IMG/VR virus record: IMGVR_UViG_3300010885_033832 | Span: 1-64,000 of that record | Source: a virus | Strand: one strand, 5' to 3' | DNA: 64,000 nucleotides | Part shown: one piece after another, positions 3,540 through 37,300 of the stretch | Layout: each line of letters starts with the position of its first letter | How positions within the stretch are numbered: position 1 is the stretch's first letter | The notes under the pieces: model-generated | The model's input: the letters and a program-made list of their open reading frames with translations, nothing else | The model's database searches: none | What the model was told of the DNA's origin: nothing | Made by a program: the position numbers and the translations under genes

Positions 3540-5465
3540 TTAATACCTAAACCATAGGTCGCCATTAGTGCCCCCTGTGGGTCCAGATGTAGAGATTGTT
3601 ACAGGATACACTGGGCCTGTAGATCCCGTTGACCCAGTCGAGCCAGTCGAGCCAGTGGCTCCTGTTGGGCCAGTTGGACCAGTAGGCCCGGTGGACCCTA
3701 CTTGACCTGGAACTGATCCAGTTGTTTCCACCCAGTAGGAGTCGTAGTAAACAAACTGCTTACCTGTTTCTGAGTTATACCAGACGTCCCCAGTCACTGG
3801 ACTTGGAATAGTAGGTGCTGTAGTTGACACAGTATATGTTCCTTTTGTGCCTGTAGGTCCTGTGAGTCCAGTTGCACCTGTGTTTCCGGTGAGACCTGTT
3901 GGGCCGACAGCACCCGTTTGGCCGACCTGCGTGTACATAACCTGAGTAATGCCGACAATGACTGAAGGCGTGACTGGGTGGACGGGGGAAGTTCCCGCCA
4001 CAGAGTGGTTGAGCGAAAGACTGGTATTGGTACCGTGCCAATAAATCTGAACATAGTCATTGACAGCAGTCGATGTTCCAACAAAAGTTACAGTTACGAG
4101 TTGGGCACTTGGCTCCCCCGCTGACTTTCGAGGGGAGATGGTGACGGTAGTAGACGAGTTAGCGTAGTCCGACCCATTCAGTTTGAGCCAGAAAGTGGCT
4201 TCTTCAACTGAGTTGGCTGTGTTGTATATTTGAGCAACAGCGGTCATGGTGTACGTGCCCGGTTGGGAAATAGTTATTTTGCTACTATCAACAATTGAAA
4301 TACCAGAAGATCCATTGGGGTAAGTAGAGTTGATTGTAACTACTTGAGCAGTATTGATATTTGCAATGGCTTGGTCAGTTGTGTCGTAGAACGATCCGTA
4401 GAGGCCAATAGTGCCGCCAGTTCCAGTTGGTCCAGTTGCGCCTGTATTGCCGATTGCACCTGTATTACCGACAGCTCCGGTTGCGCCAATCGCCCCAGTG
4501 TTTCCTACAGCTCCCGTGTTTCCGATTGCGCCAGTAACACCCGTGTTACCGACCGCCCCAGTATTTCCTACCGCGCCCGTTGGGCCCGTCGCACCCGTGT
4601 TACCGACAGCGCCCGTTGCGCCTATAGCACCCGTTGAGCCCGTTGGACCAGTAGGGCCAACAGATCCTCTAAGTTCAATGGCAATAAGAGTGGGAGAATC
4701 GGATGGAGAAGCTGATTCTCCATAAACCGTAGTATCCCCACCTTGAAATGCTTTGATGGTGTACGTGTAAGTTCCCGCAGCTACAGCGTCAACGTGCGAT
4801 ACGGCAAAAGGAATATTTGCAGAGGCCGTTGAGCCTTGATAAATAACAGCCTTGCCGAGTGCTGTCGTCCCACGATAAAGTTGAATATAGTTCCAAGCAC
4901 CACTTGTTGTGGGGTTTGCATCGCCAGTTCCCGATAGGTAGACAGGACCGCCAGTTGTTGTAATTGAAATCGTTGCAATAGTGGTGGGAGTAGTAGTATT
5001 TACAGTTACAGTTCCCGTAGTACTAGAAATTGCATAGTTCATGTTGCTAGGAGTTAGGGTCCCAGCCCCTGGTTGTTGTGGGTAGACAAGAACTTCGTTT
5101 GTGGCCGGATCAAAGGCAACAGTATACAGACCAGACGTACTTCCGAGCGAATCGTACGGCGCTTCGTATCGTAGTCCGTTAAGAATGAGGTGACCTTCAT
5201 TACCTACATTTAGAGAAAAACTTCCACCCGATGAGAGCGAAGTAATTTGAGACAAGTGCTCAGTGCTGATTGCTCCCAGCTCAATCTTGTTGCTGGTAAC
5301 GGCTCGATCTTGGACGTTGTCGGTAGCAACACCTGAACTAGCAATCTGGGTCGATCCAACAGAGTTTTCTTGGATCGTCTTCTTTTCGGTGGAGATAACT
5401 CTCGACTCGAGGTCGTTGAGCTTGTTTCCGACATTGCGGTTACGTCGTACGCGTCTAGTCGCCAA
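3540..5465 (-). CDS. Collagen-like minor tail/fibre protein
   Basis: 641 aa; three Gly-X-Y blocks separated by beta-rich domains; located in the tail module. Confidence 0.8.
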
Positions 5466-8400
5466 AGCCGTCCACCTCCCACTCAGGAATAACTTCCAGC
5501 GTAACTTGTTCAGGGAACGTCACACCGTCTGGGACGGTAACGGTATATGACTCAATTTTACGAACCAGCACGGTGTCCCTAGGCTCAAGGTCGGTGCTCA
5601 GTCGAGCCTGAATAAACGGGTCTCGTACTACAATACTACACCAGTCGCCAGGGGCATATGATCCGACGATGGGCTCTAACGACCCGTTAACACTGATGGA
5701 AAATTCAGCCATCGGCGGTGCGGCCTCGAGAGCGTATCGTCGAGCGTACCCATAAAGCACGGTTTTATTGTTGGCGTCATCGGCCTTCTCGTCAAAGTCA
5801 AGTAGCGGCCATTTGCGTCCCCGGGAACCATCGAGGAAGTCGGTGAGGGTAGCAACGCCAATGTTTGATCCGTAGTCGTCCCCCGCGTTCTCATTTCCGA
5901 CAACAAACATACGCGTGGCCGAGTCCTCGGCACTCTCATTAACGGAGAACTGGCCGATGTTTCCGGGGTACTCAAAGACCACTTCGTCTGCTCCGTACCT
6001 GCTTACGGGCGACACCACCCCGGCCGCTGGCGGGTTGGGGTACTCGAGAGGGAGCATAACAAAAGTCTTGGTAAAGGTCGATGTCGCCTCATCGTACTCG
6101 CAGTCAATTCGATAATCGAATCCGTCCACAGACGATGCGTACTTTTCTAGTGCCTCTCCAACAGTCGTGAGCTCAAATCCTCGGTGGATAGGGGGGTCGG
6201 TGTTGATGCCAGACGCCTCCCGGGTTGAGAACAGCAGCCCGATGTCGGCACTACCGGGGAAAGGACCAAACGTGCTGGCAATTGCAACAGGTCGGACAGT
6301 AGCTGAGCCTTGACTAATGATGAGTTCAGGAGATCGGTTATCATGCGTGACAGAGTATGAGAACGTCTTTGCCGTTGGGGCCGGACTAGACAGGATAGTT
6401 TTTGTTCCGTTATAGATGCTAGTGGCTTTAGCGTAGGCAACGGAGCTGACTACATCCTCTGTAATTGATGTGGTTTGTGCTCCAGCAGAGTAGTCAAAGA
6501 CATTGTTTGTAGCGTTACTAATTGTCTTATTAGTCCCATTGAATACACTGTTTTTAATGACGACACCAGCCAGTACTGGATCAGTCTTAAAATTTCGGGG
6601 AGGTGTTACAGCAAACGAAAGAGTACCACCATCAACCTTTGTGATAGTCCAATCACCATTTAAGATACTAGTCTTGGGAGTTACCTTAGGGTACGGCGTC
6701 TCAACATTCTTATCAGGTCGTTCTACAGCGACATTGGCAACTTCTGCTCCGTTTTGAACATAGGTAATCTGCGTAGTGGAGACACCAGTAAGCGGGTAGG
6801 TTCCGTTCATCGGGCTGAGAAAAAGAATTTTAGCAGCGGCCGCTGAAGAAGTTAGTGGTGAGTCGTAGGAGTTATTGATTTGATACGAGATTGTCGTAGC
6901 TGAAACTGCAGATACTTCGAAGTCTCCATTAAATATGGCCTCATTAGTAGTTACTGTCCCATCATCAGATTTTTCAGCTACGACAGTTTTCCTACCAGGT
7001 AATTTTATGTCCGCATCCCCGAGCACTACCTCATAGCTAAAACTATTGCTAGTCATGGGTTCGGTAACTCGATGCTCCCCACTAAACCCACCCCCCATGC
7101 TAGAGATTGTGACAGTATCCCCAGAGCTAAAGTTGTGCGGTCCACTCGTTGTAACAGTGGCATATCCACGAGAAGCTCGCTTGCTAATTAAATTTTCAGA
7201 GTCGGTACAACCTTGAACTTTAATCTTGGTACCAACCGTAATTCCATGACCTGTAGGGACAGTTAAAGTTGCTACCTCACTACCAATTCTTTGCTTCTGA
7301 ATAGTGACATAGTCATATATATCTTGGACTACTACATTATCGCCAATTGAGTAGGGGTGCTTGTATGTAGCATCTGTGCTCAGAGTGAGCGTGACGCTGT
7401 TACTAGTGCGAGACTTGTGAGTGACTATTATCGGTGTACTGATCCCAGAAACTTTTACTGTGTCACCATTTTTGAAGTTGACTGATTTAGAAGTCTTGAG
7501 TGTAGCAATATTATCTTTAACGTACACCGACTCGATGAAAGCTGCATCTTGAAGCCCTGTGATGTCAACTACATCACTGTCATTGAGAATGTGGTCTACT
7601 CCAGTTCGGATTGTGGCAGTACCAGTTCCAGATGCAACGCGAAGTGCTCGGGAGGAGATGGAGATAAGCGGAGATACGTTGGCTACCACAACCGACTGAC
7701 CCGCAGTAAACCCGTGGGCTTTATCTGTCGTGATGGTCGCAACATTGGAGGTAAGTTTTGCCTGCACAACACCAACCGCGCTGGCACCAACAGTAGCAGT
7801 AGCATTGTTAAAAGAAGTTTCTGGGATGCTAGCTTTAGACGCTTCTTGGTATGTAAAAGTTGTTGCCGTTGCGGCAGTAATTTTTTGTACTCCATTAAAG
7901 TAGCCTCCATACCCAAGGGATCCGATTTGAGTATTGACTTCTACGGTCTGTCCAACCCTGAATCCATGGTCTGCAGCTGTTGTGATTGTAGTTAGGCCCT
8001 CGACCGCCATCATCTTTGTAACGGTTGCTTTCGACTTTGCTACTGTAGTTGGGGAGAGTGTTCCGGTCTTTTCAAACGTAAACGTGGTGGGACTGGGAAC
8101 CGAGTAGACGCGATATTCACCATCAAAGTTATCGTCAACATTTTTGATCTGAACAGCCTGCTCCGAAACCAGACCGTGCGGCTGAGCCGTTGTGATGGTG
8201 GCAAACCCGTTAGCCAGTTTCTTAGAGACAATGTCGAGTGAGTAGCTGAGTCCGGGCTCAATGTAGACGTTGGGAAAGTTGACACCAACAAAGTCACTGG
8301 CCATGCCCGACAACAAATCTCGAATGTAGTCGTAGGTATCGGTACGCACTGAGACGTTGACATTATTGTAGGTTCCATCTGGAATAGTCCGAGTCCCTGT

Positions 8401-9159
8401 ACCAGTAATGGTAACACTATCGGCGTTGGCTAAGGTTAGGGCATATGAAAATTGCTTTCCGTCTACCCCCGACGCCGTAATTTTAAAGTCGGTTCCATTG
8501 ATACTAGTCAAGGAAGAAGCAATAGTGATAAGATCATCAGTCTTAAATTTGTGATCGTCAACGGTTGTGATGGTCACAACGTTGTCTGCAACTGAGGCAG
8601 AGGACAGCGTCGCCACACTATTGATACTACTAAGGGTGAATTGTTTAGTGGTGGGGGCAGGGCTTGACGCAATTGTGTAGATGCCGTCATACCGGAAGTC
8701 CGCAAACTGCAGTTCTACTGTGCGGCCAGACTTGAGAGCACCGCTAGTGTAGCCCAGGTCGAGATCAACGGTCCCAACTCCGCTGACCACGGTAAGCGTG
8801 GATCCGAGAGTGTGGCTGTAGGTCTTCCAAATCTTGCGGTGGTAGAGGTAGCTAGGGAACTCTGACCCACTGACAGATAGCGTTTTCTGAACGACGTCAT
8901 ACGATCGGGACCAAATAATCCCACCCCATACGCAGATTCCGTCTCGAACAATATATAGAGCGGTATTTCCAGGTGTCGTGCTGGAGTACAAGTTGAGATA
9001 GTTGGTCTGCTCGAACGTCGGGATAGACCCAGAGAAATAACCAGCACCGTTCAAGGCACGTTGATATGACACTCCACGGAATGGGATTTCCTCAAGAATT
9101 TCATTAGTGAGAAGATCGGCGGTGAAGTATCGATAAACGGGTGCGGATATGGTAGCCAT
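5455..9159 (-). CDS. Minor tail (baseplate hub-like) protein with inserted nested beta-barrel repeats
   Basis: 1234 aa; N-terminus ([10 protein letters not shown]...[15 protein letters not shown]) and C-terminus resemble actinophage minor tail proteins; many T-TT--HGF--G--V repeats in the middle. Confidence 0.8.
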
Positions 9160-9193: not shown

Positions 9194-11317
9194 CTACCCA
9201 ATCCAGCCCGAACGGTATTCTATTTCCGCAGAGGCTGTGCTGGATGTTCGTCGGGCCGTTTCTTCTGGAAAAGCCAGGGCCACATCTTCATTGGTTGCAC
9301 CAGAAGCAGGGACGGTAGTTGCATAAACCACCGTGTCATACCGGGGAATACTTGTGACAATCTTGTCGACAGCGTTGTAAAGATTTTTATTGGCTGGAAC
9401 AGTGACTGTACCAGTAGTGACAGCTTCAGCTTGATCTGTAGCAATGGGCAACGAATAGGTAAATGACGAGGCAGTTGGGACTAATACTACCGCTGTCGTA
9501 GTGGCATTGAATACGCTTGCGTCTAGGCTGTTTGCAGTTCCACCAGTGGCAACGGTAGTAATGTTTGAACCAAGTACCGCACCTGTTACCGAGTAGTAAA
9601 CAGTTGAGCTGGGAGTCGACGTGCTGGAGTCTACTGTAAAATTGCCGCTCAAAGTAGCATTCGTCTTGTTGGTGACAGTAGAACTGATACCAATTGGAGC
9701 AGTGGTACTGGGCTGAAGGCTAGACAATGCAAAAGTAAAAGAGGTAGCTGCCGCTGTCGCAATGGGATAGTCACTACCAAAGATTGGGAGTAATACTTCT
9801 GAGACAGTCCCAAAACCACTATCGACTGATTGAACTGAGTAGGCTGTTCCGCCCGTCACGGGGTAGCTAAATGTCGTGGGGTTGATTACAGTGACTAAAT
9901 TGTCATAGGTCCCATCAAACTCAGCGTTGGTCAAGTTTGCCACAGTGTCGGTAACTTCTTGGATGGAACCATCCACTGGGATGCCCGAGACAGGCGCTGT
10001 CAAACTACCGACTTCAGTAGAGGTTACCAAATACGCTCGAATTGTGTAAGTGTATGAGGTTCCAGCATTCAGAGTCAGACTGCTATCAATATAGCTAGGA
10101 TTTGTCATATTTCCAACAATGGATCCCGCCACACCAACCCCAGCAATTTGCACACCGTCTCGGTAGATTTTGTATCCTCCTGTGTTAGTCATACCAGCAG
10201 GGGCCGTCCACGATAGGCGAAGCTGTTTGGGGACTTCAATTGAGGCCAAAACTGTTGTTGCAATAATTGACGTAACAGCGAGAGCCGATGGGGCGGCCGC
10301 AAAGCCGGGCGCTGTTGCAGTTGCTGTGTTGGATGAACCACTCTCTGTGGTGGAGGTGATAGAGGTGACGTAGAACGAATATGAGAGACCAGGAGATAAG
10401 CCAGTGACGGAGAAGGTCTCAGCCGGGTCTGACGATATCGCTATAGTTTGAATAAGTACACCGTTTTGGTAGATTTTATAGCCATAGTTCCCCGCCACGG
10501 AGGCTGGTGGTGACCACGTCAAATCAATACGCCCCGATATGGCGTTCGGTGTAGCCACCATGTTTGTTGGGTTGCCTACTACTGCTGCAAAGTTTGCTGT
10601 CGCAGTTGCATAGCTGGAGGCTTTACTGGTGGTATTGTCTGCAATTGTTACTTCGTTTTTGGCTCTAACGTCGTAGTAGTAGAGAGTGTTGTTTGGTGCC
10701 GTGTACGAAAATGTTAGTGCAGCAGTACTACCGATTAGCGTTGTAATAGCTGTTGACGTTGTGCCCCGGTAAATGTCGTATCCAGTTACATTTGAGCCGC
10801 CGTCATCTGCGGGAGCGGCCCACGTAAAGTTAACAACACCCGAAGTACCGCTGGGGGTTGCTAGAAACGATGTTGGTGCATCTGGTGATTCGATGTACCG
10901 ATACTCGCAATACGCTGTTCCAGCCCAGGTATATCCAGTACCTTGTTGCGTGGTAGACCCTGAACCAGATCGCTTAAAATAGAGACCACCCTCAGTAGAT
11001 GGATTAAGTCGGAAATTAGTAGAGGTACCACCATAGACAATAGATCCAGAAAGTGTCAACCACGCAGAAAGCCCAGGGGATGAGTCAATGGCAACGTTAT
11101 TAAATGTTCCGCTAAACCCGCCAATGGAAGCAACGATGTTTCCCTTAAGATCATAAGACCCTACATAGGTGCGGAGCTCGGTAATTATCATTGGCTTATT
11201 GTCGTTGAATGCCGTTTTCACTGCAGCAGAGGGCAGTGTCACTGCTGTTTGTACGTAGCTTCCATCCTTACTATAAGGGGTGTAAGTTGTGCCACCAATT
11301 GTTACTGACGTTGCCAT
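9194..11317 (-). CDS. Minor tail protein with three fibronectin type III domains plus C-terminal half-repeats and a Dit-like terminal strand
   Basis: FN3 motifs (FTWAAPADDGGSNVTGYDIYR, LTWSPP...GLSPGLSYSFYV, LSWTAP...AGTSYTYTIRAY); ends AEIEYRSGWIG. Confidence 0.8.
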   Translation of the reverse strand: MATSVTIGGTTYTPYSKDGSYVQTAVTLPSAAVKTAFNDNKPMIITELRTYVGSYDLKGNIVASIGGFSGTFNNVAIDSSPGLSAWLTLSGSIVYGGTSTNFRLNPSTEGGLYFKRSGSGSTTQQGTGYTWAGTAYCEYRYIESPDAPTSFLATPSGTSGVVNFTWAAPADDGGSNVTGYDIYRGTTSTAITTLIGSTAALTFSYTAPNNTLYYYDVRAKNEVTIADNTTSKASSYATATANFAAVVGNPTNMVATPNAISGRIDLTWSPPASVAGNYGYKIYQNGVLIQTIAISSDPAETFSVTGLSPGLSYSFYVTSITSTTESGSSNTATATAPGFAAAPSALAVTSIIATTVLASIEVPKQLRLSWTAPAGMTNTGGYKIYRDGVQIAGVGVAGSIVGNMTNPSYIDSSLTLNAGTSYTYTIRAYLVTSTEVGSLTAPVSGIPVDGSIQEVTDTVANLTNAEFDGTYDNLVTVINPTTFSYPVTGGTAYSVQSVDSGFGTVSEVLLPIFGSDYPIATAAATSFTFALSSLQPSTTAPIGISSTVTNKTNATLSGNFTVDSSTSTPSSTVYYSVTGAVLGSNITTVATGGTANSLDASVFNATTTAVVLVPTASSFTYSLPIATDQAEAVTTGTVTVPANKNLYNAVDKIVTSIPRYDTVVYATTVPASGATNEDVALAFPEETARRTSSTASAEIEYRSGWIG

Positions 11318-11320
11318 GCG

Positions 11321-14275
11321 CTAGCTCGCCTTCGTGTATGTGAATGTCGTGGGGGATGGGACGGATGTGATGGCCGTACCCGCACTGTTAAGTCCAGTGT
11401 TGGTCAAATTTGTGATTGTTCCGGTGGCCGTACCGTCCTCTACTACGGCAGCAGTTTGTGAACCAAAGTAGTAGTAGGTGAAAGACGTCGTAGTCGGGAT
11501 GGACTGAATGTAGTAGGTACCCTCATATGAGTCGTAGGTACTATTAAATAAGGGGCTGATTTGATCCCCAATTGAGAACCCATGCGCGGCTGTTGTTGTG
11601 ACGGTGACAAGCTGAGTGGCATATCCGCCGTAAGCAAAGGCGTCAACTGTGGCGGTGGTTGGCAGATCGATAACTACACGGTCGCCAAGGGAGAATCCAT
11701 GTGCAGCTGTAGTGATCATAGTCACCGTTGTTCCGCTCAGAGCCTTGAGGGCCAGAGTTGTGCTCACTGGGAGGACAACCGACGCATCCCCACCACTGGT
11801 CAATCCGTGCGCTGTTCGAGTAGTAAGTGTTGCAACGCCCGATTCGTTCATGCTCTTAGTGGCAATTGAGGAAAGGGACGGACTAGCAATATTGATTATG
11901 TCGCCCGCGGCAAATCCGTGTGCTGGTTGAGTTGTAATTGTCACAATATCGGTACTGGTGTTAAAAGCGTACGATGTTGCGGTGGTCGTAGAGGGGAGTG
12001 CCACATTAATTCGACTACCATCAGCCCAAGAATGGTTTGAGTTGAGGGTGAGAGTGGCAATATCAGTTGTAGCGTTATAGGCTTTTTGCGTAATGTTTCG
12101 TTCTTCTGTCCCCTCTACTGTAACAAGATCACCAATACCAAGACCATGAGCAGTTTGTGTACTGACAGTTACAATATCAGTTGACGCAACTGCCGAAGTC
12201 GTTGAGATATCAAGAATTTCTGGCAAGAAAACATTTACTGTATCTCCCAATCCAAGGAAGTGTGCCCGATCAAATTTGAGTGTAGCAAGAATAATTTTTG
12301 CGGTGCCCGAATCTGACCCCGCTCCAGCTACGTTTCCACTCGTCGTATGATCAAATGAAAAAGTAAATGGTGACTCGGTAGTGACTCCAGTAATAGACCA
12401 CAGCCCATTGAAAGCACCAGACCCATTAGTAGTCCCTGAAACTCTAACGGGGTATCCAATTTTAAACCCGTGAGCAGCGGAGGTTGTGACCGTTACAGTC
12501 GAGCCGCTTCGCGTTGTATTAGTGATAGTAGCGGTAGTAGTTGCGTACGATTTATTTACAGTGTTGTAGTTATCAAAGCTGTCAGTGAGAGTGATATCAG
12601 TCGAACCAGCGTCAAGTTTGATCCAGTCAATGAGAGGCTCGAGCTTGGAACGCTGACCAACAGTGATGCCATTGAATGATACTTCTTTATTGTAGGTGTC
12701 TACTACCAAAGTGTCTGGGTTTGTGAGCTTTACATCAACCCCGCCGCTAATTGTGGTGGTGACAATGTCTTCCCCATCATCAGTTCCAAATAGAAGTACA
12801 TCGACTAGCGAGTAAGAGAATGTATATGGCGTCTCAGTGGTGGTAGCAGTGACAACATGACTACCCCCTTGCGGGTCGATGTTCGGGTCATTAGATAGCC
12901 AATTAAAAGAAATGGTATCCCCCACTAACAAACCGTGGTCAGCATCAGTAGTAACTGTGACTATCAAGTTATCTCGGGTGTACGACGTACCCCGTGCAAT
13001 GGCCCCAGCATCACGCAACGCCGAAACAAGTGTGATTGTTTCGTCACGGTCTCGGCTTGTAGCATGGATGGTACTTCCCGACCCGATGGGTCCGAGAACA
13101 GTGATACTTGGCGTGACTGTTGTGTTTCCGGCGTTTACTGCCGTCACTGATTTTGATGCACCCGTTGGGCTAGTGGTGGTGTCGGGGACCAGACCATTAA
13201 TACTCTTGACTTCATATCCATTAACCTGGTTGTCAGCCCATGCGTACTTGATTGGGTCAGCGGCCCGAAGAGTGATAGAGAACTCGGTACGACCGCGAGC
13301 GTTTACCGTCGTAATGATTGGCTGTCCGACAAGACGAACTTTGGCAACCTTGGTGGGAACCTCGTCGACACGGAGAGTTGAGACGCGCCGAACCAAGTCT
13401 GTTTCAGTAATTAGTCGGCCAAGTGCCTTGGGGAGGTAGTCCCGGCTTTGAGGGAGGAATACTCCCGAGAGCGTAATGACGCGAGCCATGTAGCGTCCTG
13501 AGACATCGAACGATCCGTCTTCGGTACCGCGTGTGATATCTGGAACGTCGGGAGATGTCTGCCCCCACCAACCAGTGAGGTCTGTACAGACCCACACGGT
13601 GCCATCTTCATCGATGGTGTTAAATATGAGGCGTCCTAGGGAGATGTCGGCATTGAGCTCTGGTCCCGTGATATGTGGGATTGGCGTTGGGGTGAGCGCG
13701 CGGTTGACAAGTTCTTTTTCGCGTCCCTGTTCGTTAGCAGGGGTATCGCTGAGTTGATCAAAGTATTCATTAACCTGAGAAGCCTGCTCGATGAGAAGAG
13801 CATCGAGATAGAAGATTTCACTCGCTGTAGAAACATCAGTAGTAGCTTGGATTGTTGCAATAGCGTAAGAAACCCCAGTAGGTGCTGTTGTTACGATAGA
13901 GAGTCGGTTATCTTCCCAGCGGTCAGTGTCGTATACGCGGTGGATACCCGAGGTTGGCGATGTAGAACCAAGTGTGTTGTTACTACTGTCGTAGAACGTG
14001 ACCAGCATTTCAATGTCGTTGTAGTACGCAGTAGCGGTGGGGTTGTCTGGTAGGTACACATACACCGAGAACGCATAAGACAGACCTGCGGTAAATCCGG
14101 TGATGTTGGTGGTAGTAGTGCCGTAGAGGCCTGTACCCTTGTTGGTGATCTTGAGAGAATTGTCACCAAAGAACGAGACATTGCTCGATCGAAGGATGGT
14201 GGAGTTGGAGGTTGCTTCCCACCCCGTTGTGTTAGTTTTGAAAGACGGGTTGGGGGCTAGATTAATTCGTGCCAT
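11321..14275 (-). CDS. Distal-tail (Dit)-like minor tail protein with N-terminal carbohydrate-binding-like domain and beta-barrel repeats
   Basis: Directly after the tape measure gene; NLAPNPSF---TTGW N-terminus; Dit-like LTGWW...DG...R-ITLSG...LRAADP segment; HGF repeats. Confidence 0.75.
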   Translation of the reverse strand: MARINLAPNPSFKTNTTGWEATSNSTILRSSNVSFFGDNSLKITNKGTGLYGTTTTNITGFTAGLSYAFSVYVYLPDNPTATAYYNDIEMLVTFYDSSNNTLGSTSPTSGIHRVYDTDRWEDNRLSIVTTAPTGVSYAIATIQATTDVSTASEIFYLDALLIEQASQVNEYFDQLSDTPANEQGREKELVNRALTPTPIPHITGPELNADISLGRLIFNTIDEDGTVWVCTDLTGWWGQTSPDVPDITRGTEDGSFDVSGRYMARVITLSGVFLPQSRDYLPKALGRLITETDLVRRVSTLRVDEVPTKVAKVRLVGQPIITTVNARGRTEFSITLRAADPIKYAWADNQVNGYEVKSINGLVPDTTTSPTGASKSVTAVNAGNTTVTPSITVLGPIGSGSTIHATSRDRDETITLVSALRDAGAIARGTSYTRDNLIVTVTTDADHGLLVGDTISFNWLSNDPNIDPQGGSHVVTATTTETPYTFSYSLVDVLLFGTDDGEDIVTTTISGGVDVKLTNPDTLVVDTYNKEVSFNGITVGQRSKLEPLIDWIKLDAGSTDITLTDSFDNYNTVNKSYATTTATITNTTRSGSTVTVTTSAAHGFKIGYPVRVSGTTNGSGAFNGLWSITGVTTESPFTFSFDHTTSGNVAGAGSDSGTAKIILATLKFDRAHFLGLGDTVNVFLPEILDISTTSAVASTDIVTVSTQTAHGLGIGDLVTVEGTEERNITQKAYNATTDIATLTLNSNHSWADGSRINVALPSTTTATSYAFNTSTDIVTITTQPAHGFAAGDIINIASPSLSSIATKSMNESGVATLTTRTAHGLTSGGDASVVLPVSTTLALKALSGTTVTMITTAAHGFSLGDRVVIDLPTTATVDAFAYGGYATQLVTVTTTAAHGFSIGDQISPLFNSTYDSYEGTYYIQSIPTTTSFTYYYFGSQTAAVVEDGTATGTITNLTNTGLNSAGTAITSVPSPTTFTYTKAS

Positions 14276-17200
14276 TAGATACTACCTCGACGCATTTGAC
14301 GCATAAGTTCTTGAGAGACGACGGACGCGAGTTCGCGCTCGTCCATTCCGGGGGATGGGTTTACGGTAATGTTGACGGTTGATCCTGTGGATCCTGCGGC
14401 TCCTCCGTAGTTTATCGCATTGAGGGTAGAAAGGTTTCGAGCAGTTGCTGCCGAGTTCACGACGTACTCACCGTTGGAGAGCATAGCGGGGATGCGATCG
14501 GACCGACCTCCGCCATAGCCACCAGAGACCATGCCACCGTCCGCGAAGCCCATCATGTTGAGGCCACCGACCATGCCACCGTTCTTGAAGCCTGAGAACT
14601 TGAAGGGGATGGGGATTCCGGCAATTGTAACGGTACCAGCCTTTGGTTGGGCACTGGCGCTAACCCTGATTTTACTTACAGCTGATGCTTTATCAGCGGC
14701 CATTTTTGCGTTGGTTTCAATAAGACTGAAAGAACTCGTGTCTGCGGTAATCTTGACAGCTGGTGGTTTCCAGTCTTTAATAGTTCCATTAATAACACCA
14801 ATGAAAGTTGCGTTATCAATCAAACCCTTATCATATGCTATTTTGGCTTGTCGTTGAATCTGGGTAGCTCCTGCAGCAGTAGCCTGCGCCATAGCAGAGC
14901 TAAACTCCCCTGTCTGCCCGAGGATAGCGTTATTCATTTCGCCAAGTTTTTCAGGCCCATAGGTAGCAATCTCGTCGAACACAAGGTAAGCCTGAGCTCC
15001 ATATGTTTCTTTAATGTAGTCGACTGCTTGTTGACTCAGACCGTTGGCTTGTGCTGTTTGAATGTTGTTAAGGTTCTCAACTAACATCTTGGCGTTTTCT
15101 TTCATGGCGTCCATGAAGCCTTCAACCTGGAATTTTCCATCCTTAAAGCTTGAGGCCATGACATCAACACGATCAGCTGTTGCGTACGAGGCAGCTCCCA
15201 TATCAATGGCAGCCTGCTTAGCAGCTTCGGCCTCTCGTCGGAAAGCAACTTCACCCTCACCGAGGGCGTAGTTCATGGCAAGCTGGGCATCAATCAGACC
15301 ATCTTTACCGACGAGTGAGATACCTTCGGCAGCAGCTGATGTTTGGAGAGACTTGACATACTCATCACCAAATGCTTCGACACCACCTGTAAGTTCAATA
15401 AACTCGGCGGTAGTTGCTCCGGTGCTGGTCTTAAATCCTTGGAGAGCTTGCTGAGCAGCTCTAATGTCAGTCGTGGCGACTTGGGCTAGCGAGGCACCTA
15501 CTTCGTCTAAGCTACCTCTAAATTTTTCAACGTCTGCTAGTCCCTGATTAAATGCAGTTCCAGCGTAGCCGTACATACCACTATACGATCGACCTAGACT
15601 TGTATTTACTTTTGTAAGATTAGTAGTTTCATCTCGGACAGCTTCTAGAGCCGAAGTCATGTCAGATGTATCAAACTTATTGAAAGTGTCGCCAGTCTTA
15701 CCCAAAGCAGCATTGACAGTGTCAATGGCACTGGCATTTGCTTTGAGGGATACAGTTGTTGCCTCTACGCGGGCTTGGAACTGCTTCTCAATTTCTCCTG
15801 AAATGAAAGTAATAGCTGCCATTAAGGCTTCTAAGCCAATCAAGATAAGACCAATAGGGCCTAGTGAGGCGTAAAGTGCTTTACCTAGAAATGCGATGGA
15901 TTTAGTCATACCACCAACCGAACCTATAGCAGCCCTGAATGATGTACCCATAGTGAGGCCAGCATCTCGAGCTTTGTTAAATTCGCCAGAAAGTGAGCTC
16001 CATGCTGCTCGCAGGGGAGTCATTTCAATTCCCATTTTAGCAAAACCAACTGTTAGATTGGAAAGAAGACCAATCATAATTGTCTTAACTTTATTAACTG
16101 TTCCCATGACAAACCCAAGAGCGGAAAAACCAGCAAGAATTGGACCAAAAAAGTCAAGAAGTGGTTTAAATGTCTGCGCTAAAGATGCGAATCCATTTAC
16201 CAGAGAAGACACAACATTGAGGAATACAATGGCAGAATTAGAGTCAGCAAAAGCTGCAGCAAGTTTAGTAAGACCAAGGATAATTTGAGCTAGTGGGGCG
16301 GAGGCTTTGAGAGCTTCTTGAACGAGGTACTCCAGGTAGTACGCACCCTGATTGAGGGTGTTATAGAACTTTTCAATCTCAGGAGACCCACCAGCTTGCG
16401 CCAAAATGTCTACAAGAATTCCAAGCGAGTTTCCGAGAGCAATAGTGTTTTTGGCGGCCTGGACGAAGTAGTTTTGCAAGAATGTCTGGTTCATATTGGC
16501 CCAGCCGTCGGAGGCATCAATCATCCACCCGAGGAGGAGATCACCACCCGATCCTGGACCAAAGTTCGCGGCAATGATGTCTCCAAAGCCATTGAATAGA
16601 TTTCCAAATATTTTGCCAAACTGACCCGCAACTTCGCCCGCCCGAGTGAAGAATGTTTCAAGTTGGCCAGTGGCATTTTTTGTGTCAAGGAACTTGGCAA
16701 AGTCGGCTGCTTTACCGTCAATAAAGGCTGTGAATTTATCAATAAGCGGAGAGGCGGCGTCAAAAATAGTGAGAAGAGATGAGAATACTGAACCAAGAAT
16801 AGATCCAACCTTAGGCATGACATTCGCAACCATGGTAAAGAATTTACCAAGATCATCAATGGCACCAGACTTCATAAGTTGATCAGTAAAGTTTTTGACT
16901 GCTAGGCCGAGAGAGTCACCAACTTGACCAAACCCGTCACGAATTTCTGCAAATAGCCCAGCCTTAGAGAGGCGACGCATTTGTATTTCCAGCATTGGCA
17001 GGAATCCACTGGCCACTTCTTCACGGAGACCGACAAGTTGAGGCTGGATTTCGCGCCTGAGGAAGTCGGCAAATTTTTTCTGACTCTTGGTAAGTTTGTC
17101 ATATGCGGCTGTGGCAGCGCCAGCACCGGCAGTTCGGGCATTGGCTAAGGCTTCTTCAGCATCGAGTTGCGCCCTCAGATTATCTCGTACAGTGCGGGCT

Positions 17201-18105
17201 AGTTCTTCTTCAGCGTCAATCAGTCGCTGTTTAGCGTCAATGACTATATCAGTGGCTTCGACACCATTTTGTGCATACCGCTCTTGTTCAGTGGCAAGAT
17301 CACTTGATCGATCAGCAGCTTGACGGTAGTTAAGATCTGCTTCCTTAAAAGCAAGTTCTGCTTCTCGCCGGGCCCGAGAGTTGGGTGGGAGGTCTTGGAC
17401 CCGAGCAAGATTTTCTCTTGCTTCCTCAAGCGACATGGCTGCGCGTTCTTGGCTGAGAGCGGCATCCTCAGCCTCAAATCCTAGTTGCTGTAGGTACTCA
17501 GCGCCCTCTTTGTACGCGTCATTCAGACCAATCTGAGCACTACGAACATTCTCATTAGCAGCTGCTAGAGACTCTGCATTACGTTCTACAGTAAGGGCTA
17601 AGTTTTTTAAGGCCTGTGCTGTTGCATCAACCCCGGAACCACCACCTCCAGTGGTAGTTTTAAGAGCTGCTCCAATACCACCAAGGGCAAACTTCATGAG
17701 GGCAAACCCAGTTGCCGCTGCGGCCATTGCCCCACCAAGTGCAACCACGGAGGCAGCAGCTAAGCCAGCAGAACCAATCAGAGCACCAAGACCGCCAATA
17801 ATAGAGCCAATAGTTCCAGCAAGAGCCCCAAGTCCTGACTGCAGGTAGTAGCCCTTACGAACTAACTTAGTGAAAGCTTCTGCGGCCTGCTCACCACCAG
17901 GAGCAATTTCCCGGAGGTTGGTAAGAAACTTACCAATCCGCATATCGGCTATCTTGCTCTCAAAGCCCTTTTTGTAGCTATTACCTGCGCGGGTACCTGC
18001 AGACTGAACTTCTCGGTCTACTGTGTTAAACCCGCGCTTAATGTCATCCGCTACCTGACTTGTCAGGGCACGGACGACAATCTCGGCTCTACCTACAACT
18101 GCCAC
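14275..18105 (-). CDS. Tape measure protein
   Basis: 1276 aa, Ala/Gly-rich helical with hydrophobic segments; C-terminal FADGG...SDRIPAMLSNGEYVVN motif; follows the chaperone pair. Confidence 0.92.
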   Translation of the reverse strand: MAVVGRAEIVVRALTSQVADDIKRGFNTVDREVQSAGTRAGNSYKKGFESKIADMRIGKFLTNLREIAPGGEQAAEAFTKLVRKGYYLQSGLGALAGTIGSIIGGLGALIGSAGLAAASVVALGGAMAAAATGFALMKFALGGIGAALKTTTGGGGSGVDATAQALKNLALTVERNAESLAAANENVRSAQIGLNDAYKEGAEYLQQLGFEAEDAALSQERAAMSLEEARENLARVQDLPPNSRARREAELAFKEADLNYRQAADRSSDLATEQERYAQNGVEATDIVIDAKQRLIDAEEELARTVRDNLRAQLDAEEALANARTAGAGAATAAYDKLTKSQKKFADFLRREIQPQLVGLREEVASGFLPMLEIQMRRLSKAGLFAEIRDGFGQVGDSLGLAVKNFTDQLMKSGAIDDLGKFFTMVANVMPKVGSILGSVFSSLLTIFDAASPLIDKFTAFIDGKAADFAKFLDTKNATGQLETFFTRAGEVAGQFGKIFGNLFNGFGDIIAANFGPGSGGDLLLGWMIDASDGWANMNQTFLQNYFVQAAKNTIALGNSLGILVDILAQAGGSPEIEKFYNTLNQGAYYLEYLVQEALKASAPLAQIILGLTKLAAAFADSNSAIVFLNVVSSLVNGFASLAQTFKPLLDFFGPILAGFSALGFVMGTVNKVKTIMIGLLSNLTVGFAKMGIEMTPLRAAWSSLSGEFNKARDAGLTMGTSFRAAIGSVGGMTKSIAFLGKALYASLGPIGLILIGLEALMAAITFISGEIEKQFQARVEATTVSLKANASAIDTVNAALGKTGDTFNKFDTSDMTSALEAVRDETTNLTKVNTSLGRSYSGMYGYAGTAFNQGLADVEKFRGSLDEVGASLAQVATTDIRAAQQALQGFKTSTGATTAEFIELTGGVEAFGDEYVKSLQTSAAAEGISLVGKDGLIDAQLAMNYALGEGEVAFRREAEAAKQAAIDMGAASYATADRVDVMASSFKDGKFQVEGFMDAMKENAKMLVENLNNIQTAQANGLSQQAVDYIKETYGAQAYLVFDEIATYGPEKLGEMNNAILGQTGEFSSAMAQATAAGATQIQRQAKIAYDKGLIDNATFIGVINGTIKDWKPPAVKITADTSSFSLIETNAKMAADKASAVSKIRVSASAQPKAGTVTIAGIPIPFKFSGFKNGGMVGGLNMMGFADGGMVSGGYGGGRSDRIPAMLSNGEYVVNSAATARNLSTLNAINYGGAAGSTGSTVNITVNPSPGMDERELASVVSQELMRQMRRGSI

Positions 18106-31384: not shown

Positions 31385-34300
31385 CTATGCTAACTCGTCT
31401 GGGGTGAACCCCATCAATTCTAGTGCCTGCATGATCTCTTCGATTGAGGCGTTGTAGCGGTTAGCCACACCACCAGCAGAGTACTCAAGCGGTACGGACA
31501 TACGACCCTCAGACATGGCTTTCCGGTACTGAGCAAGAAGCGCATATCGGTCGAAGATCTCAGCCATAGTATCGGGCGAGAGCTGGCTCTGGCCTGTGGT
31601 CGGTGCTTGGCGAGAACCTGCGCCCTTGCCTGAATCTTCTGGCTTGTCAGCAGAATCTCCGCCCATCAAGAAATCAAAACTCTTGAGGATGTCGAGTACG
31701 TCCTCTGAAGCTTTTGGCGCTGGCGTCTCTTCTACTGGCTCGGCTGGAGGCTGCGCGGGCTTGCGCGGTGGACGTGGCTTACGCGGCGCTTTGGGGGGAG
31801 TAACTGTCTCAGTGGGCGGAGCCACTTCTGGGGTGTCTGGCGCAACAGGCACCTCTGGAACCTCAGGAACCTCAGGTGCGTCAGCAGGCTCAGCAAAGTA
31901 CGCGTTGAGCTTATCCAGCTCACCATCAAACAGCGCAGCAAACTGACGACGAACTTCTGGAATAACCACTCCTGCATTCTCTTTAGCTCGGAGTCGCTTG
32001 AAGATTAATCCTTCATAGAGTCCACGCAGGTTAGTTTTACGCTTATACAGCGCCTCAATTGCTGGATCGCCGGTGGGGATCTCGAGAGACGGATTGTTGT
32101 TGCGATCAACTAAGAACTTAGCAAACCCAAGAAGCTGTTCCTCCGAGAACTTCTCCAGAATTGGGAATGGAGCATCCCCGGGAATACGTCGCCAGTCTAG
32201 TGAGTTGTCGAAGGGCTCTGGGAGTGCCGGGAAGTCCTGGTAGTGAGTAGAAGTAGAAGTTGGGCTTCTCCACTGCACGCTTGGGTTCTCAAGGTTGATT
32301 CCCTCAGGCAGAGCCATCGTTGCTCGGGACGCCCGTCGTGCGCGGGAGCTGGTGCTGGCAGGTCCTGCGCCTTTCTCCTTGCCCTTTTCCTGCTCTTCGT
32401 AGGCTTCTTTGTACTGTTCAATGAAGAAGTCAGTTGGGTAGGCGGACGTGGTGGTACTCCAGATGTCGTAATCCTCGAGATCCTTTTTATCGATTCCACG
32501 TTCTTGGAGAAGATCCTCTACTGTGGCGGCGATTTCCAGGAGGCGAGCCATGTTACCAATATCCATGGCTTCTTCAGCTCGGGAGAGAGCGACATAGAGC
32601 ATGTTAGCCTGTTGCATAATCTCGTCATCTGAGAGATCACGGAGTTCGCGCTTTGGCTCACCATCTGCGTTCTTTTCAACTTCCCAGAAAGCAAAGACAC
32701 TGTCACCTACCTTAACATTGGGGGCTTCCAGACCTTTTGCGCCGTGCACGGTCAGCAAGGCCACATCGTAGCCCAGCTCGTCAGTGTAGGGGTCGCCAGA
32801 TTTAGTTCCATCAATCAATGCGCTGTACTTTGTACGAGCCGACTTGTCGACAGCGCTCATCTGGAAAACAGTTTGACCCGGACGGATTGTCTCATATTGA
32901 GCGTAGGCCACGGCGTAGAAGAGATCATCGGTAGATTCTTTGTTCTTTGCTCTACCGTCGATAAACTGACCAACTACCTCTTCGCGCGGCTTGGGCGACC
33001 CAACAGCCTTGCCGTTAGACCATAGTGTCAACATATCTTCGCCGTCAGAGCCTTCACTAACAATATATGTGCGAAGACTCTCAATGGTAGGAGTCCCCTC
33101 TTCATCAGGGGCTCCCTCGAGTCCAAAAGTAACAAGGTTTCCCGCTCCCAATGAGTACTTGAAGTCAATTAAGCCGGGTAGATTTTGCTTAAGAGAGGGT
33201 TTTTCGTTAGGACTATTGGTTCTCTTTTTGTCCTCTTTGCCCAGATTATTTGTGTAAAACTTAGAGAACTCTCCTGGAGTAGGTTTGTCGGCTTTTTCAG
33301 CCTCACGATACGTAGACTCAAATCCGAGGACATTGAGAGCGTCTTTACTGAGTGGGTTGTGCACCGAAGCATCTGCTTGGTACTTGAGACCACCGTCCAG
33401 GATTGATACAGTGACAATCTTTGTGCCTTCATTGCGCTCGAAGAGAAGCTCAACAACGCCCTCACCGAGGATTACACTAGGATTGCCAGCTTTGTTAATT
33501 TTATCTGGGTCCCGGAGTACGTTTCCGTCTTCATCACGGAGGGCAAAATTGGTGGAGGTGTAGAACTGCTTGACAATCGGCTTACCACCAGCGGCCCGGA
33601 ACTCAGCGTCAGTTGGCATACTGACATCGCCCATCAACTTGTCTTTGTCGAGAGCTTCAATTCTACTGCGGGCTTTGGCTGCTTCTTTGAGCAAGACATT
33701 GACTGTATCAGAGCCTGGGTACACATTTGCAATTCTCATACCCTCGAACTCTTTGTCGGTGGTGTTGAATTTAATTAATTCAAGCTCTTCCCGCAGTCTG
33801 TCTGAGATGTTTGGATCGGCCAGCAGGTCACGCTTGGAGCGCTCGAGTCGCTGACGGAAGCCTAACAATCCAATGTTCGAACCTGTGATTCTAAGGTTTA
33901 ACAGCTCGGAAGACTTTCCCTTTGTAACCGCGTACTTGAATCTGCCGGGAACGAGGGGCTCAAAGTCAAACCCATCACCATCAAGATCAGCCATCCGCTG
34001 AGGAATGTTGGGAGTTATTAGTCCCTCATACTCTTCGACATAGTCCTTTTGTCCGGAGATCAGGTATGAAGGCTTGGGAGATACAGTCTGACGGATAAGT
34101 CGGAGCATTTCTTGACGCCGTTCAACTGCCTTGACAACTACATCTTTCTTTATGGTTTTTCCGTCAGAAGATTTTTCTTTTACGGTTTTGGTATCATCCG
34201 AAATCATGCCAAATTCTTCGGCGACTCGGAGGAAGGCAATCACCTTGGAAGACAAGCCAGCACCACCTTTTCGGTACTTATCCATGATAGATTGCTCACC

Positions 34301-37300
34301 GCTAGTTCCAGGAGCGTTCAACCGAAGATCGGGGTAGTTTTGGAATACGCCCATTTCATGGTTGGCAAATGCCTCTTTACGAGACCTAGTTGTTGGTCTC
34401 ATTTGCATCAAACTTAGAGCTTCAATGTTTGTGATGAACTCTTCACGTCGGTTGGCGTTGATTGCAACGCGACGTCCAGCAGAGGCATATGTAGGTAGGA
34501 CACCTAAGAGTGCGGTGTTAGTGGCTTCGATGTGCATGTCAACTTGTTCAGTTGGCATAGAAGTGCCGCCAGCGCGCTTGATAGCCGCTTGAATTTCAGG
34601 AGTCATCTTTTTCAAAACTTCGGGGGGAAGAATTCTAGAGAAGATTTTTCCCTTGGGTGCTTCGTCTGACTTGCCAGAGGTAGTACGAAGCGGCTCACCC
34701 ATCAACCACAGTGGGACGTTCGCCACATCAACGAGTGCCTGGGGGGAGCGGTATGTTTTGGTAAGACCATTCTTGACGTCAGCGACGCTATCTGCTTGAT
34801 CGTAGAACTTGAACATCTGGTTGACAGCACCACGGAACGCGTACAGAGCTTGTCGGTTGTCACCGACTACAACCACTTGCACAGCTAGCCCATCTTCGTT
34901 CGGCATAGCAAGCTGGTTTACTAGGTCGATTTGTGCAGCGTTAAGGTCCTGAGCTTCATCAACAAACAGAGTGTCTGCTGTGGAACCTCCAGGGACTTTT
35001 TTCACAACATTGGCAAGGCCCGATAACTGCCAAATCTTTGACAACATAGAGTTAGTGACTGGAAGCGGGGAGAAGGGCTGTCCATCGATAGCGCTAAACG
35101 CCAGCTTATTCTTGATGGTGATAGGGACCGTTATATTTTCGTCCCACATCCTCTGTGCAATTTTGACATAGTCCCATGCAAGCGCCTCATCTTTAAGAAC
35201 CTTTTTTCTTAGAGCTGAGCTCATGTGTGGGAGCAGGTGATCTAGTGTTATTTTTCTATCTGCTGTAGACGCAAATCCATTCGCAATACCGCTCATGAGG
35301 TCGCTAAAAATAATATCAGAAGTTATTTTGTCATCTTTACTGATTACTACTTCTTCAATACCGTAAAGCTCGGTGGCCTCATAAGCAGACATAAATGAGG
35401 TGCTATCTAGTTTGGCGGACCTTCCGTCTTTGGCTCCCATCGACAAGTCGAGCTTGGCGTTGAGAGTGGCTCGTTTTGTTGCTTTGAGGTCAGAGTCAAC
35501 GTAGGTTGTGTTGGGGTCGTCGAGTGTCATTTCTACCCCGAAGAAACCCAAGCTGTCCAAGGTTCGAGCCTGTACGTTGGCTCCAAATCGAGCAGCGGCT
35601 TCCTCGGCAGTGCTACGGTTGAACGCGGCCAAGAGTATCTTGTGTTCGGGGAACATATCGGACAACAGTTTGAGCGTACTGGTTTTTCCGGTACCAGCGC
35701 GGGCGACAATCACCATACTCTGGTTCTGACCAAAGTCGTTGATGATCTTCAGCTGTTGCTCACTGGGGGTAATACCAGTCTGTTGGTAGACCTGCTCAGC
35801 GGTATACGTCCGGGCCTTGTAGCCACCCACTTTTCCTCGACGAATCTTGGAGAAGTTGTCAGGCTCGCCAGACTTGCTCACACGCGAGGCGGCCCCAGTA
35901 CCAGTTGAATTTTGCTGATCCGACAGGGCGTCGCGGAGGCTTTGCTTCTTATCGGAGATGAAGATCATGCCAGAGTCAATCTCGGAAATGAGCGCACTCT
36001 TTTGGGCATCGCTAATCGGGTCTTCTTCGGTGAGATCGGTTTCAGGGGAGACACGGTACCACTGGCCGTCTTCACCCTTGGCGTAGGTGTCCAAGGAGAC
36101 CTGACGAGCGCCCTTAGTTGACTCTCCATCTGCGCCTGCGATTACGTCGCGGGAAATACGAGCACCTGTTGGAGCCACATCGAAGATGTCCGCCGACGTT
36201 ACGCGGGTACGAGAAGCAGACTGGTTACGGTCCTGAGAAGTGACCGGACGCTCAGAGTTGGTAAGGCTCGGAGTGAAAGGAGCGCGCGAACCGCTAATCT
36301 CAGACTGACCGTCGGCTGCATCAAGAGCGTCAAACACCTCAGACGATGAATACGAACGCGTGTTGTCGGAGACTCCAGCATCGTCAGCCGCGTACCACAG
36401 TCCGTCGGATCCCCGGACAAAGTTGTCTACTCCGTTGGATACTATATCTCCAGCAGTTGCTGAGTTGAGATCGTCAACGGTAGAGATAGACATATCAATC
36501 TCATCGGGCAGCGCTGCACCAGCGCCCTTACCTTCTTCAGCATCTTCTTGTTTAGGTGCTCGTCCTCGGTCAGGACGGCGGCCCGATGCTTCGGTAAAGG
36601 CAGCGATGACACGCTGGACGGTTTCTTGTCGTTCTTGCGCCTTAGCAATTCGCTCGCTGTACCCATTGAGGATTTCGCGCTGTTCGTCCGTCAGGTACTG
36701 CTCGTCAGGGTTGTCAAGCGAGTTGGCGTATTCGCTCTTCTCGTTGTTTAGTTCCCCGAGAAGTTCTTGGTACTCACGCCACTTACGGAGTGCCTGTTTG
36801 CGTCGACGAGCAAACTCCTCAATGGGGATACTGAGGAAGTCGCGGTAGTTAGTCGACTCTGTGTAATCTTCTTCGTCCTCGCTAGCAGCAGAAGGCCTCG
36901 ATCCGTCGCCATCACTCGGCTCGGGCTCTGGTTTGCTTGGCTCGCTGGGTAGGGCACCCGGACCCTTGGGTGGTGGGTTACCTTCAAGAGGGAGGAATGG
37001 ACCAGACGGTCCTCGGCCATCAGGCTGTCCGTCTTGAGAGTCGCTTTTACCCTTCTTTCCCAACTCAATGAGTGGGATAAGTCCGCCAAAGAATTCGATG
37101 TGCTTGATGTAACCAACCATGTCGTTTTCGTCGTACATCTTGCGAATCTGGACAGAGCGCTTATACGCCCAACGATCCCAGAGTGCCCGCTCATTGGGGT
37201 CCAGTCGCTGAAGGAACTTGTACGAGTCAGTGACAAAGTCTGAACGCTCTTTTTCGGCGCGCTGAAAGTTAGCGAAAGCTGCGGCTTTTTCAGAGGCAGA

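Follow-up and report, generated by a model that had tools for sequence, protein, structure and literature searches.

Genes at the locus

The record IMGVR_UViG_3300010885_033832 is a 95-kb IMG/VR virus contig from a freshwater metagenome, estimated to be 56% complete, and the window analysed here is the stretch of 64,000 nucleotides (nt) covering its positions 1 to 64,000. Two adjacent tail genes on the minus strand of this window encode a Dit-like protein of 984 amino acids (aa), named P0001 (11321 to 14275, with the stop codon TAG at 11321-11323), and a partner protein of 707 aa, named P0002 (9194 to 11317, stop codon TAG at 9194-9196), which together contain matching numbers of unpaired halves of one beta-barrel domain. 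On the same strand, P0001 is preceded by the tape measure protein gene (14275 to 18105), identified from the list of open reading frames (ORFs) and by its match to PHROG tape measure families (E 2.8e-51), and P0002 is followed by the gene of a minor tail protein of 1234 aa (5455 to 9159). Since the tape measure gene lies immediately upstream, the P0001 gene, which starts at 14275, is in the Dit position, and the same gene order is found in Microbacterium phage Zooman and in the viral loci used for comparison. P0001 matches the minor tail protein family phrog_5577 (E 5.6e-23), which provides the homology of its core to known Dit and minor tail families. P0002 has ten homologues with 50-71% identity and the same length and start. 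A megablast search of the DNA against cultured phages gave no match.

The phrog_5577 match of P0001 corresponds to the Dit core (residues 210-404, 13064 to 13648, minus strand, as all features below). The region upstream of it (approximately residues 1-165, 13781 to 14275) resembles a CBM_4_9 domain, but its Pfam score (PF02018, E 2e-4, 22.1 bits) is below the cut-off of 25.9 and provides a lead only. A complete FCCH-type barrel, in which an N-half is directly followed by a C-half according to half-domain models, is inserted in the Dit core (residues 439-490, 12806 to 12961). A second complete barrel (residues 594-643, 12347 to 12496; best E1_FCCH stretch in Pfam, 592-646) lies downstream of the C-terminal Dit domain and is missing from relatives of 906 aa, where it appears as an alignment gap. 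The whole-protein score of P0001 for E1_FCCH (PF16190) is 39.2 bits, above the gathering cut-off of 29.5, and that of the 1234-aa protein is 37.3 bits. Residues 586-663 of P0001 (12347-12580) comprise one barrel and a linker that are also present in P0050 and P0051 (982 aa) and missing from the close relatives of 906 aa; as judged from the aligned sequences, this difference is a clean gain or loss of a single domain.

Half-domains of the two proteins

Hidden Markov models (HMMs) of the two halves of the barrel were built from window coordinates only, the N-half comprising ~22 aa around the motif T-x-x-x-H-G-x-x-x-G-D and the C-half ~30 aa ending in T-F-T-Y. With these HMMs, P0001 reads NC NC NNNNNNN CC, i.e. 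the two complete barrels followed by seven N-halves and two C-halves, and P0002 reads CCCCC, with no N-half. The preliminary description of the sequence had arrived by inspection at the same seven N-halves against two C-halves in the 984-aa protein and five orphan C-halves in the 707-aa protein, and every repeat motif that it listed for both proteins is present in the translations. When applied to another set of Dit-like proteins, the same HMMs yielded a strict NCNCNC alternation, which shows that the two motifs are complementary parts of a single domain and that the models are not driven by composition. Iterated general HMMs drifted to complete domains and undercounted the halves of the partner, and lineage-specific HMMs were used instead for the relatives.

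The first five of the seven N-halves (N1 to N5; residues 664-850, 11726 to 12286; HMM matches at residues 664, 702, 740, 778 and 815) are orphans and would constitute the outgoing arm of a stalk, whereas the remaining part of P0001, in the order N6, N7, C7, C6 (residues 851-984, 11324 to 11725; half-domain HMM matches), would be a distal cap completed within one chain. P0002 starts with a domain that is conserved across the homologue alignment (residues 1-143, 10889 to 11317); it had no match in Pfam, PDB or the Atlas, and it may be an adhesin head. It is followed by three FN3-type domains (residues 144-447, 9977 to 10888), with a Pfam fn3 E-value of 1e-14, matches to Titin FN3 and a predicted local distance difference test (pLDDT) score of 66-88 in the fold of the fusion described below. 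The five orphan C-halves come next (residues 456-667, 9317 to 9952; HMM matches at residues 456, 502, 545, 592 and 635) and would form the returning arm for barrels 5 to 1. Along the rod, the N-terminal domain and the three FN3 domains thus follow the C-half of barrel 6 and precede that of barrel 5, in agreement with the earlier proposal of an FN3 module inserted into the returning arm.

The last strand of the Dit domain

The C-terminal SPP1_Dit domain of P0001 (residues 513-565, 12581 to 12739) was detected with PF22768 at an E-value of 0.013 and with 16.1 bits against a cut-off of 25, and the match covers only positions 34-85 of the 97 profile positions, without the last strand. The profile covers positions 38-85 in the distant homologue Zooman gp83, while in the unsplit Dits P0116 and P0113 it reaches position 97 at the very C-terminus. 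The 984-aa protein alone therefore does not contain a complete C-terminal SPP1_Dit domain, and, at the level of profile matches, a full Dit is represented by the pair of P0001 and P0002 and not by a single gene. Unsplit Dits end in PGxNxIEFxD…L-x-V-x-YRSGWLG. The end of P0002, TASAEIEYRSGWIG (…YRSGWIG; residues 694-707, 9197 to 9238), is identical at nine of 14 aligned positions to the C-terminal end of P0116, one of the unsplit Dits.

The distribution of this motif was followed in 168 collected proteins and in 80 related viral loci. A YRSGW-type end was absent from all 59 clusters of Dit-like proteins showing an excess of N-halves (four or more), and was found in 15 of 17 proteins with excess C-halves and in 36 of 55 with balanced numbers. 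Of the 80 loci, 69 contain an ORF with this end, exactly one per locus. This ORF is the Dit itself in approximately 55 unsplit loci, with Dits of 401-1774 aa, whereas in 12 of 13 split loci it is the gene that follows the Dit; in the thirteenth, L018, the partner ORF runs off the end of the locus. As the motif is carried by the Dit in unsplit loci and by the next gene in split ones, we conclude that, in the peripheral domain of the Dit, the rod of half-domains follows the penultimate strand and precedes the last one, and that the next gene encodes the return arm together with this last strand. The earlier claim that a Dit-like last strand ends the 707-aa protein is thus backed both by the alignment with P0116 and by the motif distribution over the 80 loci.

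Conservation of the complementary pattern

Between lineages the Dits share 36-50% identity, and about 11 lineages are distinguished at a threshold of 55% identity, cultured Microbacterium phages included. With lineage-specific HMMs, and leaving the barrel within the Dit core out of the count, the nested block was found to be either 7N/2C or 8N/3C, always leaving five orphan N-halves, and the partner was found to contain five orphan C-halves. This complement of five and five was counted in the window, in L012, L014, L016, L017, L019, L021, L055, L068 and L070, and in gp83/gp84 of Microbacterium phage Zooman. The close relatives L003/L013 and L004/L012 (~85% protein identity) have seven N-halves, two C-halves and five partner C-halves, one N-half being undetected in L013, and are short of one complete barrel only. 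The group is thus characterised by a Dit with five orphan N-halves, by a following gene with five orphan C-halves and a YRSGW end, and by a Dit profile match that stops short of the last strand, and the pair of the window shows all three traits. The complementarity, its conservation and the relocation of the last strand are in this way shown by comparison of the sequences.

The partner varies in length from 707 to more than 1669 aa between lineages, and this variation lies in its middle part, the arm and the terminal motif being kept throughout. Since both arms are kept and the middle is variable in length, the socket may be fixed and the heads exchangeable, which would have a bearing on host-range evolution and on phage engineering.

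The junction and the mode of translation

At the junction (11315 to 11323), the sequence TAG CGC ATG comprises the stop codon of the Dit-like gene, a 3-nt spacer and the start codon of the partner, and, as had been noted before for AGC TAG CGC ATG, both ORFs are in one frame. An artefact has to be considered, in which the TAG would be a sequencing error or a recent nonsense mutation in one long gene, since the junction is in frame and a single codon separates the stop from the ATG. This is extremely improbable. The region 11231-11381 is covered without any difference by an independent contig from a second freshwater metagenome study, albeit at a low depth (2.1), and the genes are split at the same point in all relatives, with varied stop codons and spacers, including cultured and annotated phages. 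Homologue searches did not find the fused form either: an exhaustive search of representatives with the partner arm, which might have revealed an unsplit nested homologue, gave ten matches, all of the partner type; no fused form was seen in a search of near homologues up to 1722 aa; and a word search for longer homologues yielded none, the latter being weak evidence.

A second possibility is programmed amber read-through, by which the TAG would be decoded and a 1693-aa fusion would fold the nested rod in one chain, as a functional or required minor form. The two ORFs of the window share one frame with only TAG CGC between them, a TAG with an in-frame sense spacer is likewise found in L013, L014, L015, L018 and L021, and the fusion would be sterically compatible because the junction is located at the turn of the rod. 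However, in L012/L004, whose Dit-like protein is 86% identical to that of the window, the junction consists of TAA and 2 nt and is out of frame. It is also out of frame in L016, L055 (overlapping TAATG), L063, L068 and Zooman (17-nt spacer), the spacers of some relatives being 10-17 nt long, and double stops are present in L017 and L019 (TAG TAA ATG) and in L070 (TAA TAA). At the level of lineages, the junctions compatible with read-through amount to five of about 11, against about 3.5 expected by chance. Neither the frame relation nor the single leaky stop is thus conserved among the relatives, and because of their out-of-frame, double-stop and overlapping junctions read-through is not a conserved mechanism.

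The use of TAG in the genome and the signals for initiation point in the same direction. TAG is the commonest stop codon, in nearly even use with the two others (23 of 59 long ORFs, against 21 for TAA and 15 for TGA), and both P0002 and the following gene terminate with it as well. No tRNA gene was found in the 95-kb record, estimated as stated above to be 56% complete, and it gave no indication of a suppressor tRNA or of TAG recoding. A Shine-Dalgarno-like sequence, AAGGCGAG (11325 to 11332), lies inside the last codons of the Dit-like gene, 8-15 nt upstream of the partner ATG, and each of the 15 junctions compared has AAGG or GAGG at a distance of 10-18 nt before the partner start, mostly embedded in the last Dit codons, as expected for separate initiation. 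The conserved N-terminus of the partner is also in line with separate translation. Programmed read-through is consequently very unlikely, although the frame relation in the window is such that low-level read-through may occur in this phage. The preliminary description had proposed completion of the domains either in trans or by amber read-through; the first part is supported by the half-domain counts, the relocated strand and the complex model presented below, whereas the second is not conserved among the relatives.

A split intein was considered as well and rejected, as no Hint or intein domain was found in a Pfam scan, and P0001 ends in a barrel C-half while P0002 starts with its own conserved domain.

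Structure predictions

The interaction of the two arms was modelled with residues 655-984 of P0001 (chain 1) and residues 448-707 of P0002 (chain 2), each with its own alignment. The interaction prediction score from aligned errors (ipSAE) of the complex was 0.81 (0.82, 0.79 and 0.81 in the individual runs), against 0.00 for the best of three controls. Of 80 solved complexes, 58 attain the pass mark, as do 2 of 110 mismatched pairs, although these numbers are only roughly valid here because our own alignments were used. The runs agreed in at least 82% of the contacts, with a partner pLDDT of at least 75. The ~950 contacts of the model span residues 658-872 in chain 1 and residues 450-671 in chain 2, and those with the lowest error (815 with 485, 778-793 with 517-529, and 740-760 with 553-575) match a nested antiparallel map, in which N5 pairs with the first C-half, N4 with the second and N3 with the third. 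The pLDDT of the partner was 75-77 with the true chain 1 and 34 with an unrelated one, and that of chain 1 was 86-88 with the true partner and 64-66 with unrelated partners. Folded alone with AlphaFold2, the Dit arm had a pLDDT of 28-60 over N1-N5 and of 64-89 over the one-chain cap. An interface between the two proteins, which had been put forward as a check of the completion in trans, is thus predicted and passes the three controls, while N1-N5 are of low confidence alone.

Model residues 216-308, in the cap completed within one chain, were compared with solved structures and correspond to the six-stranded barrel fold of the E1_FCCH family. The model superimposes on the phi92 endosialidase barrel (Z 8.9, root-mean-square deviation 2.4, 82 residues aligned) and on E1 FCCH chains (Z 8.4, root-mean-square deviation 2.8-3.0, 77-79 residues aligned), although a Z near 8 is barely above the common background of the comparison tool and the Foldseek E-values are weak (0.03-0.1). 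A Foldseek search against PDB returned nothing at E ≤0.001 and no solved nested rod.

Several points weigh against a rod shared by the two proteins. The structural support is predicted throughout, and the pairing of the halves comes from one predictor together with the logic of the sequence. An AlphaFold2 model of the read-through fusion (P0001 495-984, Q and R, and the whole partner; 1199 aa, with an alignment of 12 rows) had a mean pLDDT of 41.6, and neither arm was usably modelled; the FN3 part alone was confident, and even the cap, well modelled in the arm folded alone, was not, so that this model speaks neither for nor against the pairing or the position of the last strand. The Dit core lies outside the complex construct, so that the docking of the last strand is deduced from the motif data. 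As for the counts, one N-half each of L017 and L055 was deduced from a 72-aa gap, the second C-half of L014 was read by eye, and the counts of L015 and L063 are ambiguous. Moreover, the number of orphans is five in all ten countable lineages, and the match between the two proteins is therefore one of constant and not of co-varying counts.

An alternative is that the two proteins fold independently, their repeat units (38 aa in the Dit arm, 40 aa in the partner) being complete alone or as homo-oligomers, with their likeness to half-barrels an evolutionary residue and the partner binding the baseplate in some other way. Predictors are prone to pair complementary beta pieces, and the fusion model was not confident. 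On the other hand, it speaks against independent folding that five orphan N-halves face five orphan C-halves in every countable lineage, that the match to the Dit profile ends at position 85 of 97 with the missing strand on the partner, and that each arm is of low confidence without the other whereas the complex clears all three controls. We therefore regard independent folding as unlikely, if less so than programmed read-through. The proposal that the second protein completes the Dit core and five of the barrels is supported by the complementary counts, the moved last strand and the controlled complex model, the pairing of the individual halves being a modelled feature.

Proposed organisation of the Dit-partner complex

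Taken together, these data make it likely that the two genes represent one 'evolved Dit' cut by an old gene fission, the two polypeptides of which would fold together in trans. P0001 would form a hexameric Dit ring, as suggested by its homology to Dits, with a peripheral C-terminal domain lacking the last beta-strand. From the loop before this strand, a rod of seven FCCH-type barrels would extend as nested insertions, from N1 outward to N7, and the P0001 chain would return only to complete the two distal barrels (C7 and C6) and then stop. P0002, translated separately from the embedded Shine-Dalgarno site, would have its head domain and three FN3 domains branching off between barrels 6 and 5, and would then run back along the rod, providing the C-halves of barrels 5, 4, 3, 2 and 1, before its final YRSGWIG strand closes the Dit domain. 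The result would be a heterodimeric zipper, presumably in six copies per tail if the Dit is hexameric as usual, each anchoring without a covalent link a side arm that is probably an adhesin.

Fission of one long evolved Dit appears to be the simplest origin of the pair, because the end of the partner is homologous to the ends of unsplit Dits and because the cut is located at the turn of the rod, where the extra module of head and FN3 domains sits.

With somewhat less confidence than in the two-chain fold itself, we favour the view that P0001 and P0002 are obligate folding partners, neither arm being stable alone, with five split beta-barrels and the Dit closure between them, and that this zipper joint serves a large group of siphophages, actinobacterial and freshwater ones, as a standard, exchangeable socket for side arms. 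If so, it would be, to our knowledge, the most extensive natural completion of a fold between chains in a virion. The peripheral arm would be attached to the phage baseplate in a new manner, by a nested rod shared by two chains and not by a docking surface, the pair would be a natural example of protein-fragment complementation on a large scale, and the 'minor tail protein' annotated after the Dit would have to be renamed as the second half of the Dit. Since the same layout is present in cultured Microbacterium phages, among which Zooman, Big4, Cece, Pumpernickel and A3Wally are members of the group, the claim is directly testable.

Relation to known systems

The evolved Dits of siphophages infecting Gram-positive bacteria carry carbohydrate-binding modules in loops of their C-terminal galectin-like domain. 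P0001 resembles them in that its gene is located right after the tape measure gene, that the extra modules are in the peripheral C-terminal domain and directed outward, and that a carbohydrate-binding-like domain is present as a lead. It differs in that its insertion is predicted to be a seven-deep nested FCCH-type rod placed just before the last strand, and in that two genes are involved, five barrels and the Dit domain needing a second chain. In chaperone-usher pili, in which donor-strand complementation takes place, and in split genes or protein-fragment complementation, an incomplete beta fold is likewise completed by another chain and the joint is non-covalent and very stable. Here, however, the donated part would be five half-barrels and one strand along a rod of ~200 residues, and both chains would derive from one ancestral protein.

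The unsplit Dits P0113 and P0116 (NCNCNC…, ending in YRSGWLG) have the Dit core, the barrel family and the C-terminal strand motif in common with the pair, but their barrels are complete and serial within one chain that has its own last strand, with no orphan half and no such partner gene. Likeness to the E1_FCCH (PF16190) and endosialidase beta-barrel (PF12195) families is given by the Pfam match above the cut-off and by the fold match of the one-chain barrel; the examples in these families are single complete domains, whereas the barrels described here are predicted to be nested and split between chains. Phage tail tubes are known to carry FCCH domains (PMC13576161), and for mycobacteriophages several structures of the baseplate have been published (PMC13252515). 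In the literature on FCCH domains in phage tails, nested domains, evolved or split Dits and Microbacterium phages, no description of a split Dit or of a nested rod was found.

Other observations

The 1234-aa minor tail protein downstream of P0002 contains barrels of this family as well, several N-halves in a row preceding several C-halves, and differs from the pair in that the return arm is in the same polypeptide. Its FCCH halves do not alternate (e.g. …NN CCC), and homologues with runs such as NNNN CCC are present in L012-L019 and as Zooman gp85, which suggests, from the order of the halves, nested barrels within one chain. In L023-L053 and similar loci, the Dits are short and unsplit (470-567 aa), mostly with one complete barrel, and end in YRSGWLG; the next gene encodes a protein of 655-734 aa with patterns such as NCNNCC, suggestive of shallow nesting inside a different tail protein.

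Outside the tail region, a single open frame of 4425 aa is located among the head genes (31385-44662, minus strand). The G+C content is 0.47-0.49 across the tail genes (1-20 kb of the window) and rises up to 0.58-0.61 at 48-60 kb.

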